Made by a program: the position numbers and the translations under genes. A stretch of DNA of 64,000 nt from Microthyrium microscopicum (Eukaryota): contig MU004239.1 in NCBI GenBank assembly GCA_010405405.1, positions 62,001 to 126,000 on the forward strand, in the 5' to 3' direction. Below, piece after piece: positions 3,646 to 14,900 of the stretch (position 1 is its first letter; each line of letters opens with the position of its first letter). The notes beneath the pieces were generated by a model that searched no databases, had not been told where the DNA came from, and worked only from the letters and a program-made list of their open reading frames with translations.

Positions 3646-4842
3646 ATGAAAGACTTTTGGACTATTTTAGTCACTTTGCAGTCCTTATTAAGCTTGGCGT
3701 TTACAGTACCAGTACCTGACAAGCTTAATGTAAGAGATGTGAGAGGTGAATATCATTTTGCTCGTCTTTGCTACATGCTGAGCGTACTACTTAGCAATAT
3801 CTCAAAGCGACTTCGACACCATCAGCCTCTACGAACAGTACGCAGCCGCGGCCTATTGCCCATCAAACTTTAATGGGTCTGTACCAGCGCTTGTCACTTG
3901 TCGTTCCAACAACTGTGATTTGGTGCAAAAGGCTAAGGCTGCAGCTATTTATAAAATTGCCCCGTAAGACCCCTTGAACACGTTTCTAATCTAGGCTGGA
4001 ATTACGAAGAGCTTAACGACGTTTAGTAATTCGCTTACGGATACCAGAGGCTATATTGCGGTTGATAACGTCAACAAACTAATTGTCGTGGCATTTCGAG
4101 GGTCCGAGACAGTCGCCAACTTCCTGGCAAATCTGTTGTCTATTTTTCTTACTAGAGTCGACCTTTGCACAGGATGTCAGGGTGGCAGTGGATTTTGGAT
4201 TTCCTGGACTAGGAATCGAGCACAAATTATACAACAAGTCAAGAATCTGCTCAATAATCCAGCCAGGCAGAACTATACAGTTTTAGTCACTGGACATTCT
4301 TTGGGAGGTGCCATTGGAAACTTTGCAGCATTTGAGCTTAGAATAGCTTTTCCCAAGACTACAGTTGATATGGTACGTCTCGCATCCTGTTCTGAATTCA
4401 TACCTTGCTATTCTATTTAGTACAACAAGCTCACAGCTTTGATATCTAGGCCACGTTTGGAGCCCCAGCAACCGGCAATCTCATATTTACAAGCCAACTC
4501 AGTAAACAAGATCGGATCCGTGGACGGAACTTTCGTGTTAATCATCTTGGAGATCCAGTACCAAATCTACCTCCTATTCGTGGCTTTACAAGCGTCACGC
4601 CAGCATTCACAATCAATACAGCAAACCAAATAGTTCCAGCCCCAAAGGATTTTACAATGTTAGAGGGAGCTTCGGCGTTGAATCCAGGTGTTACCAATCC
4701 TTTTGATTTTATGCCTCACGCTTTCTACATTAATGCCATTTCTGCATGTTTTGTTACTCCTGCGGCCTTCGTTGCTAATATCACTCTTCCTCTGAAGTTC
4801 ACTTATGGGTCGGAGTACCCACAAATGGAAGCTAGCCTCTAG
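3646..4842 (+). CDS. Secreted class 3 lipase (Lipase_3 family), 4 exons
   Basis: Signal peptide MKDFWTILVTLQSLLSLAF. Exons approx. 3646-3745, 3795-3963, 4027-4372 and 4450-4842, joined by GT-AG introns. Motifs YAAAAYC, VAFRGS, nucleophile GHSLGG, TFGAP, HLGDPVPNLP and a C-terminal His (PHAFY). Confidence 0.92.
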
Positions 4843-5650
4843 GCTTGATGTATCCTCTGATTAGCCTATACCGTTATGTATTTGGTCTATTCGAAGCAGT
4901 CGAAGCCATGCTAATTGAATCAGCTGAAAGGTACGAACTTTGCAAACAGCATTCTAGCCGCTTCGTGTTGTCTTTATCAAGGTCTCTCTTGAAAGTTTGC
5001 GTCTATTGTGAATTTGGACAGCCTGCTTAGTTAGCGACTGTGAAGTCTGGTAGTTATCGTTCAAATCACTTCAATGCGGCTCAGAACCAAATCAGAACTA
5101 GTTGATGTGTTGTTGGCGTCCCATAATGGTAGACTAGATCACACCCTTTTTCTCGATTTTGTTGCAAGTTATAGGAGGAACTCCCTTTCGTCGGTAAACA
5201 TGATCTTGCTGAGAAGAGTCGCTGCATAGCATCTGGATGATGCGTTCTCGTCGTTTATGCCAGAACCAGGACTCGGGATGCAAGCACTAGCAGATATTGA
5301 TTGTGCGATTCGATAGCAAGGTGATATTTGAGACAGAATACGTCACAAGATCTGTCCGTGTTTTAACACTGTTAACAGACGGAGTTGTTTCTAAGCTGTG
5401 AAAGTTCCAAAATCGATTTTCCATGGAAGATATATCCTTCTCCCGATTTCTTCTGGCTCCTGTATACTATACCCTTCCGTTCTCCAGAAAAATCACTCCT
5501 CATAATTACTGGTGTTACACAAGGTTAAAACAATTGTGCGCCAACGACCTTCGAACCATGAATAGTGCATTATTTTAACTGTACAGCTGGTGCATTACAT
5601 TGTAGGATATATACGAAAATGGAGCAATTTTGTCTCAAATCCAAGCTCCC

Positions 5651-5701
5651 GTACGTGATGATTCTATATCTTCTTATTAGTACCGTGCTAACCGCATGTA
5701 G
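5651..5701 (+). other. Putative spliceosomal intron 1 of tRNA-Tyr (51 nt, between tRNA nt 5 and 6)
   Basis: Donor GTACGT, branch site GCTAAC at 5687-5692, acceptor TAG at 5699-5701. Confidence 0.85.
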
Positions 5702-5735
5702 CTTGGTCTAGTTGGTTCATGACGTTCGGCTGTAA

Positions 5736-5746
5736 TTGATACTATT
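5736..5746 (+). other. Canonical tRNA intron (position 37/38), TTGATACTATT
   Basis: 11 nt inserted one base 3' of the GTA anticodon. Removal restores the 7-nt loop and the CCGAA 3' stem strand, as is typical for eukaryotic tRNA-Tyr. Confidence 0.9.
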
Positions 5747-5777
5747 ACCGAAAGGTCTCCGGCTCGATTCCGGAAGG

Positions 5778-5824
5778 GTAAAAACAATCAAGTCTACACC
5801 TTAGAACTTACTGACACTTTGTAG
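5778..5824 (+). other. Putative spliceosomal intron 2 of tRNA-Tyr (47 nt, between tRNA nt 68 and 69)
   Basis: Donor GTAAAA, branch site ACTGAC at 5810-5815, acceptor TAG at 5822-5824, followed by GGAGA, which completes the acceptor stem. Confidence 0.82.
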
Positions 5825-5854
5825 GGAGATCATGATGAGGATCTAGAAGATCAC

Positions 5855-5860
5855 TTTTTT
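5855..5860 (+). terminator. Putative RNA polymerase III terminator (T6) for the tRNA-Tyr gene
   Basis: First run of 5 or more T after the tRNA start, 25 nt downstream of A73, followed by a T5. Confidence 0.6.
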
Positions 5861-6373
5861 GCTATTTTTACTTGCGTGGTATAGCCTTATTAGGTGGGGT
5901 TCAATCACTAGTTCCATTTCTTTTGTTTTTGTATTGAAGCCCATTGCGAGGACTGAAATGCTGGAAGAAGCAGTGGACACGTTGATCTTATTCAGGCGCT
6001 AGGTATAATTGTGCGGCCCTAAGAATTCAAGTTGTGTATATACCGCAGAGAATTTTCAGGATGCAACATTAATTAAGCCTTTTTAGGACCCCAAAATAGG
6101 TGCTTACTACTCACTAATTTTAGGGGACCCTACATAGCGCTAACTAATTTTAGAGGGTGTAGCGTACTACAGGGTTACTAATTTTAGAGGCTCTAGCTTA
6201 CTATAAATTGTCCTCTTTGTCTTAGCGTTTATATTAAGCCTATTAAGCACTCAAATAGCTACAGTACTGCGAGCGAAGGGGACAATACTAATAAAGGGGA
6301 CAACGCTAATCGAAAGGAACAAACAGGCGCTAATTAAAGGAGATAATACATATAAAGATAACGCGTATTAAAT

Positions 6374-7460
6374 CCTAAGCTAGTTCGTAGTAGAATGTAT
6401 AGTAGTAAGAGCACATTTTAGTGTTTCGCTATAGCTAATCCCTAAGCTATAAGGGCTTTAAAAAATAGTATTTTTAGCTATTTAATAAAGAGGATTAGGA
6501 GCGCCTTCCTAATATTAGTTATAATATTAGCTATTAATAGCTAATATTAGCTATTAGTAGTTAAAATAGCTACTATCTAAAAATGCGTTATTTTTAGCTA
6601 CTATAAGATAATCTAGCTCTTTAAAAATATAAAGGGCTAGATTATATAATTTAGCACGTAACTATTACGTAACACGGCACGTAATTATAATATTAAGATC
6701 TAGTAATTCCTAGATCTTAATATTACGTGTTAAATACTATAGATTTAAATAGCTTAAGTAGCTACTATAGGATAATCTAGCCCTTTAGATATAAAGAGCT
6801 AGATTTAAAGCTAGTCCTAGATTGGTCTAGCTTTACAAACTTAAGGCTCTTAAGTCCTAAGCTACTTTATAGTAGAATATATAGTAGTAGGAACATATTT
6901 TAGTATTTTGCCGTAGCTAATCCCTAAGCTATAAGGGCTTTAGAAGATCGTATTTTTAGCTTTTTTAAAAAGGGGATTTTAGGCTAATAGTAGCTATAAT
7001 ATTAGTTACTAGTAGCTAATATTAGCTATTAGTAGCTAAAATAGCTACTATCTAAAAATACGTTATTTTTAGCTACTATAAGATAATCTAGCTCTTTAAA
7101 AATATAAAGGGTTAGATAATATAATCTAGTACGTAATTATTACGTAATAAGGTACGTAATAATACGTAATTATAATATTAAGATCTAGTAATTCCTAGAT
7201 CTTAATATTGCGTATTAAATACTATAGATTTAAATAGCTTAAGTAGCTACTATAAAATAATCTAGCTCTTTAGATATAAAGGGCTAGATTTAAAGCTAGT
7301 CTTAGATTAGTTTAGCTTTATAGACTTAAGGCTCTTAAGTTCTAAGCTACTTTATAGTAGAATATATAATAGTAGAGGTATATTTTAGTATTTTACTATA
7401 GCTAATCCCTAAGCTATAAAGGCTTTAGAGGGTTATATTTTTAGCTACTTTATAAAAAAG
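6374..7460. repeat. About 483-bp tandem repeat (approx. 2.2 copies) inside the pogo-like element
   Basis: Unit start (C/T)CTAAGCTA...GTAGAAT...GCTAATCCCTAAGCTATAA recurs at 6374, 6856 and 7341. Copies differ mostly by transitions. Confidence 0.85.
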
Positions 7461-8004
7461 ATAAGAATTTAGCTAAGATTTTATAAGATTAGTAATTATA
7501 CCTATTAATTCTTATAGTAATTCTAGTTAATTCTTAAGTAAATTCTATTCTTAGTTATAGTTTAGAGATATATTTACTAAGTCTTAAATTTTTAGAAATT
7601 AGATATATTTTTACTAGATTTAGCGTTAGCTAGACTAATTACTATAAACTAGACTTAAGTTTAGGATAGTTTATTATTAAGTTAGATTTTATATATAGTT
7701 TATAGTTAGTATAATTATAAAGCTTTATATAAGAAATAGATAAGAATCTACTATTTAGCTAGCTTAATAATATTAGCTACTAGATTACCTCTAAAACTCT
7801 TTTAGAGTCTTTAGTAAAGAATATAATATATTTCTTAGTTTACTCTTTTAGGGTAGCTTAGAAATAAATATTTATATATTTTTAAGAAAATACTTTTTAT
7901 ATTAAAAAGTTATTTTCTTTTTATTAAATTAATCTATCTTTATTTTATTTTTTTTATTATATTATTAGATAATATAATAAATATTAATTTATTCTATTAT
8001 CTAA

Positions 8005-8386
8005 GTAAGTAATAAAACTACTAGAAGGTTAAAGTAGTTTAGTTCTACTTAGATAGTTAGTCTACTTAAGTAAATAGTAAAACTACTAAAAGATTAAAGT
8101 AGTTTAGTTCTACTTAGATAGTTTAAAGTAGTTTAGTTCTACTTAGATAGTTAGTCTACTTAAGTAAGTAGTAAAACTACTAGAAGGTTAAAGTAGTTTA
8201 GTTCTACTTAGATAGTTTAAAGTAGTTTAGTTCTACTTAGATAGTTTAAAGTAGTTTAGTTCTACTTAGATAGTTTAAAGTANNNNNNNNNNTAGATAGT
8301 TTAAAGTAGTTTAGTTCTACTTAGATAGTTTAAAGTAGTTTAGTTCTACTTAGATAGTTTAAAGTAGTTTAGTTCTACTTAGATAG
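8005..8386. repeat. 29-bp minisatellite (AAAGTAGTTTAGTTCTACTTAGATAGTTT) spanning a 10-N assembly gap
   Basis: Direct tandem copies on both sides of the N run at 8283-8292, so the true copy number is unknown. Confidence 0.9.
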
Positions 8387-11300
8387 TAAATACTTTATTT
8401 TAGGTAAACTTTATATATTTTATAAAGTAGAACTTTAATAAATTATATTTTAGTCCTTTTTACTTATATTAGATAATGTTTATTTTATATTAAAATATAG
8501 GTAAATATTTCTAAATAAGAGAGACTAATAGAATATAACGCTAAAGTAAAATTAAATAAAAAGCGTTATTAGGGCGGCATAGTATATAGAGTAGTATATT
8601 AATCTAATTTATATATATTTACTATAAAAGATAGTAAATTAGAGCTAGAGTAATTACTAGATATTATTTATAGCTTCTATAAGAATATTTTACTTATTCT
8701 TACTAAAATAGTAATAAAGATTAGGGTAGCTTATTTTTTAAGAAATATAGTTTAATTATTTATTTCTATTTATCTTATTAGTTACTAGATATATACTTTT
8801 TATATTAAGTACTTTTTAATAAAAATATATAGATAATAAATATATATTATTATTATTAAGAAAACTAGTCTATATAGCTTTTAGCTTATTAGTAGATATA
8901 TTAATCTTTAGTATAAAAGCTTTTATAGATTAAGTAAGAGAGTAGTAAGCCTCTTATTAACTTATTTTTTATAGAGTAAAGCTAGTTTTAATATAAAGAT
9001 AAGCTACTTTCTAAAAAGAAAGTATTATACTTAGAGAAAGAGAATATCTAGTCTTTTAATAGTATATTTATTTAGTATTTATTACTACTACGTAGTACTT
9101 TATATTAGTAGTAATAAAGCTAATCTTAAGGTCTTATATATAAAAGTTAGTAATATAAAAGCCCTTCTTATTAAGCTTAGTAATAAATACTATATAATTA
9201 TTATTTTAGAAGCTATAAGTACCTTTGTCCTTTTTTACTCTTAAACTTTATTACTTTAAACTCTTCTATAAGTTAAGTATAAATTATTACTTTAATTTAT
9301 TTAGAATCTATAGCGTATATTAACTTAGAAGTATTATAATAGATAAGACTTATATATAAGAATATTAAGACGTTTACTAACTTTAGAATTAATTTAATAA
9401 GCTTTTCTTAAATAATAATTTATTTAATATAATAAGCTAAGGTATAAATCTTTATAGAAGAAGATAAAAGCTTAAGGTAGCCTAAGCTAACTTATATTTT
9501 TAAGGATAGTTATACTATACTTATTTTAAATTATTTTTACGTTCTTAGTAAGTTAGAGAGCTAATAAAATTAACTATATAACTAATCTTTATTATTAGTA
9601 ATAGTAAATAAAGTTAGATTCTAGTAGAATTTATTAACTTTAAAGATTTTCTAGACTACTAATTAGCTCTTTTAAAGTAACTAGCCTATCTAGGTTAGGC
9701 TTAGATTTCTAAATACTAGATTATTATATATGCTCTTTAACTTTTAAAGCTTTATACTTTAGACTAGATTTACTATTAACTTTTATCCTAGATAGCTTCT
9801 AGATATATTTCCTTTTTATAGATTTTCTATCTTTACTTTTCTCTTAGCTATTTCCTTCTAGCTTCTCTTTAGCTATTCCTCTTTAGCTAATTCCTTTTTA
9901 GCTATTCTCTTTAGCTTTACCTTATTCTTAGCTCTTCCTATAGTATTCTTCTTCTTTTCTAGCCTCTCTATTTTTTATTATTCTTTATAGATTTACTAAT
10001 AGTTAAACTATAAAATATAGACCTTAGGATCTTATAGTACTATTTATAGATATACTTAGCTATACTAAAAAATAATTTATTAATAGTATATATTAGATAT
10101 AACTTATAATTATATCTCTTTATATAATTTCTTAGTTAGAGAAGAGTATTACTTAGTTTTTAGAGCTACTACTAATAAAGGAAGTCTATTTTAAGATAGT
10201 ATATTACTTTCTATAACTCTTTCTATAAATAGAGATATAGTATACTATAGATAGGTTTACTAATATAATTAGTAACTAATTAAACTAGCTTTAAAAGTAA
10301 ATATATAAGTTATTTTATAGATAACTAAAAAAGATTCTTATACTTTATAAAGATAAGATAAAAGACTTAATATATAGAGAACTCTTACTTTTAGTAGTAG
10401 TTATTAGTATATAAAATCTATTTTTTTACTTTTATTAATTACTTCTTTAGAATAGGCTTCTTTATAATTAACTTCTTTATTATAGGCGTCTTTATAGCCT
10501 AAGAATCCTTCTTTTTATAAAGTCTCTTTAGTCCTTTTTTTTAAATAACTTTTATAATAGGCTAAAGATTTAGATTAAACTTTACTTAATTAGTAGGACT
10601 TACTAGTTAAGGATTTTATTACTAAGAAGGATTAAGTTTTTAAGACTAATTATCTTTCTTTTTATTATAGCTCTTCTTTAAGATCTAAATAGGAGGATAG
10701 TAATTTATAAGAGAAGAAAGTTTATTTTAATAGTTAAAGTTTACTTAACTCTAATATTAAGAAATAGGTTAGTACTACTCTTCTTAAGTTTAATTTATTA
10801 GTTAAGTTTTATACTAAGTTAGAAAAGTAAAAATAGATTAAGTATAAATAGTTTAATATTAATTCTAAGATAGAGAGTAAGACTAAGATAGAAGTAGAGA
10901 TTAAGAATAAGTAGTCTAAAATAGAGGCTAAAATAGAGGCTAAAATAGAGTTTAAACTAGAGTTATAACTATAGAAGGATCTATATATTATAAAGATTTT
11001 AATTCTATATACTTAGAGTTAGATTTAGAGCTAAAAGAAGGATTAGCTTCTTTTTCTTATTAATTTAAGTAATTATTAACTTCTTCTTTATTAGCCTAGT
11101 TAGCATAAAATAAAGGAATACTCTTTTCTTTTTTAATCTTTATCTTCTTAAAAGGATTTAAATTATTAGAATTATTCCTTAGTAGTAATATTAATCTCTA
11201 ATCTAATAAATTAATATTACTAGTAGCTATTCTTTTTATTAATATAAAATAATCTTTTAAGCTATTTAGAGTAATATTAATTCTAGTATAAGTAAAAGAA

Positions 11301-11459
11301 TACTTTATAATATTATATTTTTAGTAAGTTTACTAAGTATAAGCCTTTTCTTATATATAAGTAACTATTTTAGTTAAGATAATACGTTTTTTACTTATAA
11401 TAAGATTATAAAAATCCTTATTTAGATACGCTTTAAAAGTAATTTTATCTTAATATTCT

Positions 11460-11930
11460 TAAAAGTACTTCTTAATAACTTAGTTAATGCTAATATCTAA
11501 AGGTTAGATTTTAGCTATTAGTCTAGAAGTAATAACTATAAGAATAATGCTATATATATAATAGTAAGCCTTAACTTTTTTAGTAATATAAAACGCTATA
11601 GAGTTAATAATAACCTTTAATATTAGCTAAGGAGGTATAAGCTATATTAGTAAGTAAATTTAGCTAATAGGATTACTATTAAACTTTATAAGTTTAATAG
11701 TAGTAAAGATATAAGCTTTATTACTTTAAGAATTAAAGCTTATATTATATTTTAAAGGATAAGTTAGAATAAAAATAAATTTAAAGAAGAATATTCTTAC
11801 CTTAAGCTTATTAGTAATATTATTCTTACTTAAGTTAGTACTACTTAGAATCTATATAAGGAACCTATTAATCTTTAATTTATAAAATAATTAGGAATAA
11901 ATTTATCTAAGTAGTTTTATTAAACTTTAT
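11460..11930 (-). pseudogene. Relic catalytic region of a pogo/DDE_1 transposase
   Basis: Minus strand reads IINSIAFYITKKVK...VITSRLIAKI*PLDISIN. Reverting RIP transitions gives D-S-x-x-F-H ... Q-P-L-D-x-x-x-N with 35 residues between the aspartates. KFNKT near 11920 is a candidate for the first (D-E-T) motif. Confidence 0.75.
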
Positions 11931-14900
11931 AATAATATATTTATTATAAAGAAATCCCTTAGTAACTTTGTTTTAACTATAATGTTTAGTAGGTAATCTA
12001 TAGAATATAATTAATAGTTTTATAATTATTTTTCTATTAGTAGAGGTTTCTAAATATATTATTATTAATTATTTCTTTTATCTACTTTTAGAAATAGTAT
12101 AAGAGATATTATTTAATTCTACTAGGTAATAAGTATAGCTAGATATAGTTTTATATATATAAGGAGTTTTATTATTATTTATAATAAAATAAGTAAGAAT
12201 TTAGGTATATGCCTTTACTTTATAGCTTATAGAAATAACTAACCTAGTATAGTATTACTAATAAAAAGAAATAAAGTAATTAATAAATTATTTTTAATCT
12301 TAAGAAAGGTTTTAGCCTATATAGGTTATTTTTTAATAAAAAATCTAGTAGCGTTTTTAAAACCTTATAAGCTAGCTTCTTAAAAAGTAAGGTCTTTAAG
12401 GAATAGCTTATCTAGATACTATAAGGGAAGTATATACTAGAGGCTATTATTAAGTAGCTTCTCTAAAGAACTAGCTAGATAAAATTTCTTAGTTCTTTAT
12501 AAGCTAAATAATAAACTAGTAATAGATTATAGATTCTAAGTTTAGAAAGTATTCTTATTCTATATTAAGTTTTATTTTCTTTTAGTTACTAGTAATAAAT
12601 TTAGCCTTATTTTGCTTTTTTTACTAATAAGAAATTATAAATTTATTAACTAAAAAGTAGTTACTTGCTTCCTTAAACGTTATATATTACTATAATTACT
12701 TAGTTACTAGATCTTTAAAGTATCTAAGCTTTAGACGTAAATATAAAATTTATTTTTTATATAGCTAAAGAACGTAGTATTTATAAATTATTTATCTTAG
12801 GATTTTAGTCTATATAGTAATATTATATATTTTAAAAGCTCTTTTTTTTAGAGTAGAGTAGTTAATTTTACTATCCTAACTACTAAATTTTTTAGTAGTT
12901 TTTTTATATTTAATAAAGTAACTTTACTTTGCCTAAAGGTTAGCCTTTTTAGTATTTATTAATAGATTTTACCTTAGAATTAGTCCTTACTATATTATCT
13001 TTAGTTAATTAAGTTCTTTTGCTAGTAATTTATATATATTTTCTATATATATAGTTAAGTTTATAGTTTAATTAAGGCTATAAAGTCTTTAGTTTATTAG
13101 TAGCCTTTCTTATAGCTTTCTTCTCTATATTACTCTTTTACTAGTAATTTAGTATAGCTAAGTAAGTTACTAAATCTAGTATACTAGTTATAGGATATAA
13201 TTATTCTTTTTATAAAACTAATATATAATTATAAAGAGTAGTACTATAATTTATAATTAGTAAAAATTATTATTATACTAAACTAAAAGAGGCTAATTAA
13301 TGTTGCATCCTGAAAATTCTCTATGGTATACTAGTACCTAATACATATCGATAGGGTTTGGATGTATTATGGCAAGTAACATAAATAGTATACAACATTA
13401 TCCCTTTCTTCTAGAATGTTTTGAATATGTCCTGTTTACATGACTACAACTCAGCCAGATCTGTCTGGACGAGTGTATATCGAGCAAACACTGCAAGTCT
13501 CTTACTCTGGGAAATACAAAAAAAGTGATTTGAGAAACAATCGGTTGCGACTTGCTCGTCGACGAATACCAAGGAAGCAAGTGCATTGTCTACTTCACCA
13601 AATACTCGTTCATATGCTACAGGTATCATACGACATTTCACTAATCTGCCGGACCCCCGCGGGGAGACTGTTGATTTGGATAAGAGGTTAGCTTCTTGAC
13701 TAAGATAAAAAGAGGACATGCATCAGAGGCTTTAGAGCTAGCATTGAATTGCCATCAGCGACTGGGGAGTCATTTACTAACATACTTTAGTGAATGAATA
13801 GGTTAGGTAGGTACCTACCTACCTAAGTACTAGTTGGTACATGCTGATGTTCTCAACATTGCTACTATGGCTTGATATAAGCATACCATACTTCAATCCA
13901 GATTGATTGACTGCAAACACTTTCTTAGTGGCTCACATATTACAGGTACTAGTCGCCCAAATTTTGATGAAAATATCACCCGCAGGAGGATGCAATTTTG
14001 GAACACTTAGCTTCTCTTTCTCTATCGAGGGAAATCAGGTTTTATTTTCCATAAAGACAACCGAACTCTTTCCTTGCGTGAGATATCCAAGCACAGCAAT
14101 AGGGTTTCGTTGAGCTCGAAGCTGGCAAATGCTGCTCCTTGAACAGGACGACTTCGGAGTACATGCAAGCAGTACTAAAGAAATAGCTGCGTACACTAGA
14201 CAATCATAGCCCGCGGAGTTCTCCATGGTATCAAATGAGATTCCAAGCGGCTAGAGCGCATATAATGGAGCATTTTCATACGAGAAGAGGCTGAAAAAAT
14301 AAGAAATAAACCTTGATGGACCGCAGACTCTAGCCATCCGTATATGGCACCACTGCATCTCGATCCAATGAGGTCTACTTCCCCAGGTCTCAGTTGCACC
14401 TCATGCAGTTATTTTATGCACTGACGCACATTTTGCCTGTCAAATGTCCCTGTACATAATTTCTGCATGCAGCCAAGGCAGATTCCAAGAACTAGAACAA
14501 CCAGGAGTTGAACTTTTCACCCCCGCGACAAGGCCACTAATGACAACTCTGTGTCTATATGACGCTTGCCATAGATGTCAATCCTCCTCTTAGCCAATCT
14601 CTTAGCATTGCTATGATTAAAACTTCTAACAACGTAGCTTGGTGTGGGATTATGCGCCTCGGTTGCTTTCGGCAGGAAGAGAAGTTACAAATCAAGACTG
14701 CGGTGCCGGATATGCAACTCAGCTGAGAGGAATGAAAGCATCCTGGAAGACTAGTTGGTATAAAAATGGAACTGCTATAAATGTATCACAAGTTCCTGAA
14801 AGTAAGAAATGTTGAATCTGTTTACTCACAAGGATATCATACAAACTCGTTTGCCAGATTTAACCTCGACCTCCATTGTTCTCAAGCGACAGCATTTCGC

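Follow-up and report, generated by a model that had tools for sequence, protein, structure and literature searches.

Fungal U6 genes carry mRNA-type introns, up to four per gene and at varied positions, and the accessible portion of the same account also lists U2, U5, U1 and ascomycete rDNA as hosts (PMC5855946). Reverse splicing is the proposed origin of the mRNA-type introns in snRNA genes, and tRNA is missing from the hosts of mRNA-type introns listed in the available text of the two sources that treat this question (PMC5855946; PMC2586383). The accessible text of PMC10275265 describes only endonuclease-type tRNA introns, and that of PMC12530127 presents tRNA introns and spliceosomal introns as two types without relation to each other. 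The non-canonical tRNA introns of archaea and of Cyanidioschyzon merolae are recognised via a bulge-helix-bulge and cut by the tRNA endonuclease, according to excerpts of the relevant papers (PMC3978253, PMC4090602). A literature search, with most subscription journals outside its scope, turned up no paper describing spliceosomal introns in tRNA genes.

Here we describe a locus in the window (the whole stretch of DNA that was analysed, 64,000 nucleotides) that is probably a real nuclear gene for tRNA-Tyr(GUA) in a filamentous ascomycete, with the acceptor stem cut on both strands by two short spliceosomal GT-AG introns and with a tRNA-type intron after position 37. We regard this gene as a case of a wider pattern. 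A protein encoded in the window falls in Ascomycota clusters.

Gene structure

The gene covers positions 5646-5829 and consists of 5 nt, a 51-nt intron, 76 nt, a 47-nt intron and a final 5 nt. Exon 2 (5702-5777, 76 nt) corresponds to tRNA positions 6-68 and includes the 11-nt canonical intron. The features of the gene and of its immediate surroundings are as follows:

5607..5614, + strand: TATA-like ATATATAC, putative promoter element; the contig from sequencing run X5 has its left end (5645) 31-38 nt further downstream
5646..5650, + strand: exon 1, tRNA-Tyr positions 1-5 (CTCCC), which completes the 7/7 acceptor stem once both introns are cut out
5651..5701, + strand: intron 1, 51 nt, at tRNA 5/6, GTACGT...CTAAC...TAG; kept in the X5 contig
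5702..5735, + strand: first part of exon 2, tRNA 6-37, with the D arm and anticodon GTA (ARAGORN cloverleaf)
5704..5715, + strand: A-box region, within the first part of exon 2
5736..5746, + strand: canonical tRNA-type intron, 11 nt, after position 37 (ARAGORN -i; boundaries ambiguous by ~1 nt)
5747..5777, + strand: second part of exon 2, tRNA 38-68 (ARAGORN after intron removal)
5761..5771, + strand: B-box-like GGCTCGATTCC, with C54 instead of T54 (B-box scan and stem check)
5778..5824, + strand: intron 2, 47 nt, at tRNA 68/69, GTAAAA...CTGAC...TAG; skipped in the X5 contig
5782..5844, + strand: stretch of ~63 nt, comprising the greater part of intron 2, all of exon 3 and the first 15 nt of trailer, that recurs elsewhere in the organism's DNA with other flanks
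5825..5829, + strand: exon 3, tRNA 69-73 (GGAGA), including G72 and discriminator A73 (sequence and ARAGORN after removal)
5855..5860, + strand: T6 run resembling a Pol III terminator, 26 nt beyond the tRNA end
5865..5869, + strand: T5 run, Pol III terminator-like, the second T run after the gene

The gene is invisible to standard searches of the raw window: ARAGORN finds no tRNA with or without its intron option, and Rfam finds none at the gathering threshold or at E <= 10. Removal of both introns in silico by their coordinates (5651-5701 and 5778-5824) leads ARAGORN to report a tRNA-Tyr(gta) of 75 nt with 7/7 acceptor pairs and the 11-nt canonical intron. When intron 1 alone is removed, ARAGORN reports a tRNA with two mismatched acceptor pairs, and when intron 2 alone is removed it finds nothing. 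Stem pairing after both removals is 7/7, 3/4, 5/5 and 5/5, and the cloverleaf then presents anticodon GTA, C1-G72 and A73. We take C1-G72 together with A73 to be the identity set of eukaryotic TyrRS. The canonical 11-nt intron at 37/38 is an expected feature of a functional tRNA-Tyr gene, and a T-run terminator is present after the 3' end, with T6 at +26, although the X5 contig reads through it. The T-loop T54-T55-C56 and the corresponding B box GGTTCGANTCC are replaced by GGCTCGATTCC, with C54. A B-box scan of the window revealed no second tRNA remnant.

ARAGORN and the stem pairing agree with the first-pass annotation that the insertions lie at 5/6 and 68/69, directly 3' of the paired nucleotides C5 and G68, with an exon of 5 nt at each end. 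The exon contexts read in the sequence are also those it gave, CCC/C for intron 1 and AGG/G for intron 2. The post-hoc chance that a second intron adjoins the partner of the nucleotide marked by the first is ~1-3% (1 or 2 of 71 bonds, n=1). The paired placement around C5:G68 is a single case and most likely no general rule of tolerance; the arrangement could be fortuitous or reflect the way in which the second intron came about.

Splice signals and intron structure

Both introns start with GT, end with TAG and have a branch A 10 nt from the 3' end, at 5691 within CTAAC in intron 1 and at 5814 within CTGAC in intron 2. The U2-type 5' and 3' borders (GTRNGT-like, YAG) are represented by GTACGT..TAG and GTAAAA..TAG, of which the intron 2 donor GTAAAA is weak, and the fungal branch motif CTRAC occurs in both. 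Judged by these signals, both are good spliceosomal candidates. A class-3 lipase gene (Pfam PF01764) lies next door, with two inferred introns at 3965-3994 and 4374-4449; the latter starts with GTACGT, like intron 1 of the tRNA gene. The two tRNA introns have no obvious similarity to each other, as had been noted before: their global alignment scores 2 against -7.6 +/- 3.5 for shuffles, and they are alike only in the splice signals.

The arrangement is improbable by chance. With random flanks drawn from the window, the chance of obtaining GT..branch..AG introns that abut the core together with outer 5-mers that complete the stem is ~1.3e-5, and it falls to 5e-7 when C1-G72 and A73 are also demanded. 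The MFE and centroid folds of the precursor contain no bulge-helix-bulge at the exon-intron junctions, the folds show no pairing between intron 1 and intron 2, and a small hairpin around the intron 1 branch site is not significant. Neither the precursor (z -0.91) nor either intron (z -1.25 and +0.88) folds with unusual stability.

We propose that the precursor starts near 5645, downstream of the TATA-like element, and that the spliceosome removes introns 1 and 2. The 7-bp acceptor stem with C1-G72/A73 would form only after both splices, whereupon RNase P and RNase Z would trim the ends; the tRNA endonuclease and ligase would take out the 11-nt intron, and CCA would be added. Five of the seven acceptor pairs, along with C1, G72 and A73, exist only after both splices, which makes splicing ahead of RNase P/Z cleavage reasonable. 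The earlier suggestion that splicing acts as a checkpoint on tRNA ends by preceding end-trimming is therefore plausible as a model. The gene anatomy, the splice signals and a joined form lacking intron 2 are observed; removal of intron 1, dependence on the spliceosome, the polymerase, the order of the steps and the production of a working tRNA are inferred parts of the scheme.

Public sequencing runs

The locus is present in five public runs. Three DNA-type runs of one sample (X1, X3 and X4) contain it exactly as in the window, with intron 2 kept. Run X5 comes from a different study and is labelled RNA only by a guess. Its contig of 378 nt (depth 28.4, 0 mismatches) has 5645-5776 joined to ~5825-6069, and what it omits is exactly the 47 nt with GT..AG ends that constitute intron 2, in a run that is RNA only by that guess. 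A joined form without intron 2 exists. The contig keeps intron 1 and the canonical intron, begins 1 nt before tRNA position 1, and crosses the T6 and T5 runs to 6069, >240 nt past the tRNA end; X5 coverage of 5000-5644 is nil.

Contigs reveal neither RNA ends nor strand; in our reading the X5 contig represents a transcript of the + strand, starting near 5645 downstream of ATATATAC, in which intron 2 is out before intron 1, the tRNA-type intron and 3' trimming. The checkpoint model fits this contig, where intron 2 is gone while intron 1 and a long trailer persist. Since the contig reads through T6 and T5, this RNA would not be a normal, simple Pol III product. Intron 1 is retained in X5, the only informative contig; a form spliced at intron 1 leaves too few 5' letters for 31-mer assembly, so its absence is neutral and not negative evidence. 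The clues to the polymerase diverge: A- and B-box-like strings, T runs after the gene and the lack of T5+ in the introns stand against the read-through of T6 and T5 in X5. Should X5 be DNA, its contig would represent a precise intron-2-less allele, and the 47 nt would still be a discrete GT..AG unit.

Neighbourhood of the locus

DNA contigs break at 5792-5811, with loose ends at 5782 and 5844, and the summed contig depth reaches ~4.7-fold in 5792-5835. The stretch 5782-5844 has ~3-4 further copies in the DNA of the same organism, and no second copy was found within the window. One upstream flank of the recurring stretch reads like a coding exon ending at GT. A DNA contig runs unbroken through exon 2, the 31-mers of which are found at no other locus of the organism; since exon 2 is single-copy in the DNA contigs, the window gene may be a diverged minor copy.

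A high-copy repeat begins at ~6040, ~210 nt past the tRNA gene, with a summed contig depth of up to ~100-fold, and gives way to a block of 20-26% GC; the region as a whole spans ~6040-14000. Transitions (A>G, T>C, C>T) account for most of the differences between copies, the pattern that repeat-induced point mutation would leave. The window also has AT-rich blocks of the sort usual in fungal DNA with many repeats.

Interrupted tRNA-Tyr genes in metagenomes

An exact 26-base pattern gave no matches in metagenomes and thus no close relative of the window tRNA sequence. We also searched with a looser pattern covering the ascomycete tRNA-Tyr segment from the D loop to the anticodon, which demands that positions 14-37 be unbroken and is confined to tRNA-Tyr. 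It produced 70 matches in 69 loci, of which 8 are not tRNA and 62 are tRNA-type. Thirty of the 62 are budding-yeast-type genes with the canonical intron only, two are the cut-off locus L020 and the truncated copy L017+, and the remaining 30 represent a second type, close to that of the window gene. The second-type loci are presumed to be filamentous-fungal, judging from their splice signals and tRNA type.

Each of the 30 second-type loci was aligned to an uninterrupted reference gene with a custom spliced aligner; the aligner is biased toward GT-AG borders, and the intron borders are robust because the exon matches are perfect. Seven loci carry the canonical intron only. In the other 23, of which 18 are non-identical, there are between one and three additional GT/GC-AG introns per gene, each 51-92 nt long. 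The 18 non-identical genes contain 23 such introns, at 8/9, 13/14, 45/46, 46/47, 52/53, 58/59 and 60/61. The intron at 46/47 occurs alone in 7 of the 18 genes, the intron at 52/53 is found in 6 and the intron at 60/61 in 1; combinations comprise 8/9 with 46/47 (2/18), 13/14 with 46/47 (1/18) and 13/14 with 45/46 and 58/59 (1/18). A YTRAY motif is present in every one of the 23 non-identical introns and puts the branch A 10-14 nt before the intron end. Their removal in silico yields an ARAGORN tRNA-Tyr(gta) with the canonical intron in each of the 18 non-identical genes, and this canonical intron is carried by all 58 complete tRNA-Tyr relatives. Ten non-identical interrupted loci show 0 exon mismatches to the uninterrupted reference gene; the identity of their exons while the introns differ points to selection on the spliced product.

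The first-pass annotation had proposed that the acceptor stem may be the main place where a tRNA gene tolerates such introns, with the A and B boxes kept intact in the central part. None of the 23 non-identical introns of the relatives lies in the acceptor stem, and the census of intron positions in metagenomic tRNA-Tyr genes shows no clustering there, but seven other positions. In 11 of the 18 non-identical genes an intron interrupts a box, at 8/9 or 13/14 in the A box and at 52/53, 58/59 or 60/61 in the B box, with the box ranges set as in textbooks. For tRNA-Tyr, as sampled with positions 14-37 unbroken, these observations contradict both parts of the proposal: the acceptor stem is not the main place, and box integrity is not the constraint. 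The intron at 52/53 restores the GGTTCGA string with its terminal G.

A T run of at least 5 is found 5-48 nt past the gene in 24/24 non-identical trailers. T5+ runs occur inside none of 25 introns, window introns included; against shuffles this avoidance does not reach significance for T5+ (P = 0.28) and is weak for T4+ (P = 0.03), which leaves it a weak sign of Pol III transcription. The T loop of the window gene, CTCGATT with C54, stands apart from the 58 complete tRNA-Tyr relatives, none of which lacks T54 and all of which have GTTCGA. With C54 unmatched among these relatives, the window tRNA or its B box may be impaired.

Several loci show further peculiarities. L017 holds an intact interrupted tRNA-Tyr gene, inverted, beside a truncated copy whose 5' acceptor strand is mutated and whose 3' part is missing. 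The leaders of L009, L012 and L034, genes with differing intron positions, have a common string of ~25 nt (ending ...GGCTCATTCCA) directly before tRNA-Tyr, which could be a promoter element or reflect shared synteny. L039 is an uninterrupted tRNA-Tyr gene; in its trailer the sequence of the 3' acceptor strand recurs and is followed by its complement, so that a hairpin forms ahead of the T run.

Related introns at different positions

Introns located at 46/47, 52/53 and 60/61 can be aligned from end to end (L043:225-279, L027:355-408 and L009:361-415, in different contigs) and have a common 5' end and a common 3' block. The block is made up of CTCAG, which can pair with the CTGAG of the 3' acceptor strand, and then a hairpin of 7 bp; the branch site sits in its CUAA loop. 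In 17 distinct rows, 95.8% of the hairpin cells are paired and 6 of the 7 pairs are changed on both sides in a compensatory manner, a result reached by 0/500 shuffles. The rows were selected for six pairs, which makes the percentage circular; the same does not apply to the double changes. The block is located in the intron or the 3' trailer of L001, L009-L012, L015, L017, L018, L021-L023, L027, L036, L043, L049, L053 and L054, with a single copy in each gene that has it. In four uninterrupted genes (L001, L011, L049 and L054) it lies in the 3' trailer and its splice signals are decayed.

The presence of related introns at several positions and of one block per gene suggests a single intron lineage that has changed position. 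Alignment gives the window introns no clear membership in this lineage. We tentatively propose, as a possibility on the doubtful side, that spliceosomal introns are a regular and selected feature of tRNA-Tyr in a filamentous-fungal clade, in transcripts that look like those of Pol III, that an ancestral intron was relocated within the gene, and that intron pairs occupy contact sites of the tRNA fold. Relocation could proceed, for example, by reverse splicing into the spliced tRNA and subsequent gene conversion, and intron pairs, including the window pair at 5/6 and 68/69, would arise at sites that touch in the folded tRNA. If this holds, the blocks in trailers and the shifted introns are a natural record of intron relocation. 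Related genes with one recognisable intron at several positions make a compact, testable case of intron movement, which is an old open question.

Alternative explanations

Several features of the locus would also suit an expressed relic, that is, a diverged tRNA-Tyr copy within a Pol II non-coding transcript at a repeat-rich edge, with introns that are spliced and no working tRNA as a result. C54 is unique among the 58 relatives, the X5 contig passes T6/T5 and retains intron 1, a TATA-like element lies upstream, and the DNA contigs show one copy of exon 2; from ~6040 the locus borders a high-copy AT-rich repeat block, and part of intron 2 and exon 3 are common to other loci. Against a relic, all four stems are intact, and both introns sit exactly where their removal restores a perfect acceptor stem with C1-G72/A73, an arrangement that is hard to keep without selection. 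The relatives have the same gene design, with exons identical to those of uninterrupted copies. We consider a relic rather unlikely. The joined form in X5 raises a separate question, since the kind of run is only guessed and contigs totalling 28 Mb could suit a fragmented fungal genome: the contig could be DNA of another strain that lacks intron 2, hence an intron presence/absence polymorphism and not spliced RNA. A DNA library of depth 28 should nevertheless cover the unique 5000-5644, where X5 has nothing, and the coverage starts 1 nt before the tRNA start, with flanks 100% identical over 378 nt. This origin of the contig is unlikely, and under both readings the 47 nt act as one separate unit bounded by GT and AG.

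A privileged status of the acceptor stem, with the internal promoter boxes spared, fits the window gene itself, whose introns leave 5704-5715 and 5761-5771 untouched. It accords poorly with the relatives, in which the seven other positions, the absence of acceptor-stem introns (0/23 non-identical), the 11 of 18 non-identical genes with an intron in a box and the restoration of GGTTCGA by the terminal G of the 52/53 intron make such a status very improbable. Multiple introns at unusual tRNA positions are, on the other hand, a hallmark of systems in which the tRNA splicing endonuclease cuts non-canonical introns at a bulge-helix-bulge, as in archaea and Cyanidioschyzon, going by the excerpted text of PMC3978253 and PMC4090602. 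Yet all 25 introns start with GT (one with GC), end with AG and have YTRAY 10-14 nt before the end, their lengths of 47-92 nt match those of fungal mRNA introns, and the precursor fold has no bulge-helix-bulge at the junctions. Cleavage by the endonuclease at these sites is accordingly a barely credible account of introns 1 and 2, and we retain the reading of a tRNA-Tyr gene interrupted by spliceosomal introns.

If the tRNA needs both the spliceosome and the tRNA endonuclease, two splicing systems are linked on one small RNA. The same reading, if true, explains why standard finders miss such genes, ARAGORN and Rfam having found none in the window, and raises the question of how the spliceosome handles Pol III-looking transcripts with end exons of 5 nt.

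Comparison with known systems

The tRNA genes of archaea and Cyanidioschyzon merolae, split and permuted genes included, resemble the window gene in having breaks beyond 37/38, sometimes several, that hide them from standard finders. They differ in the signals, which in the window gene are GT-AG borders and a branch site, with no bulge-helix-bulge predicted. The canonical tRNA-Tyr intron at 37/38 is found in the window gene and in all complete relatives, and is of a different kind from introns 1 and 2. A likeness to introner-like elements is seen in the recurrence of part of intron 2 elsewhere in the same genome, but the repeated stretch of the window extends into exon 3 and the trailer, and its copy number is low (~3-4). 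The metagenomic genes, with one recognisable intron sequence at three positions, are reminiscent of intron transposition.

By analogy, the mRNA-type introns of U6 in Schizosaccharomyces pombe and many other fungi are the closest precedent for the window gene. Both cases feature canonical 5', branch and 3' sites in a short structured non-coding RNA gene, and U6, as far as the accessible literature goes, is a Pol III gene with introns at varied and often lineage-specific positions. The window case would thus belong with spliceosomal introns in non-coding RNA genes, with tRNA as a new class of host, earlier description being possible given the scope of the literature search. Unlike U6, tRNA is not part of the spliceosome, and proximity to the catalytic centre therefore fails to explain the insertion. 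The window gene differs from U6 further in keeping an endonuclease-type intron, which would place two splicing systems on one transcript.
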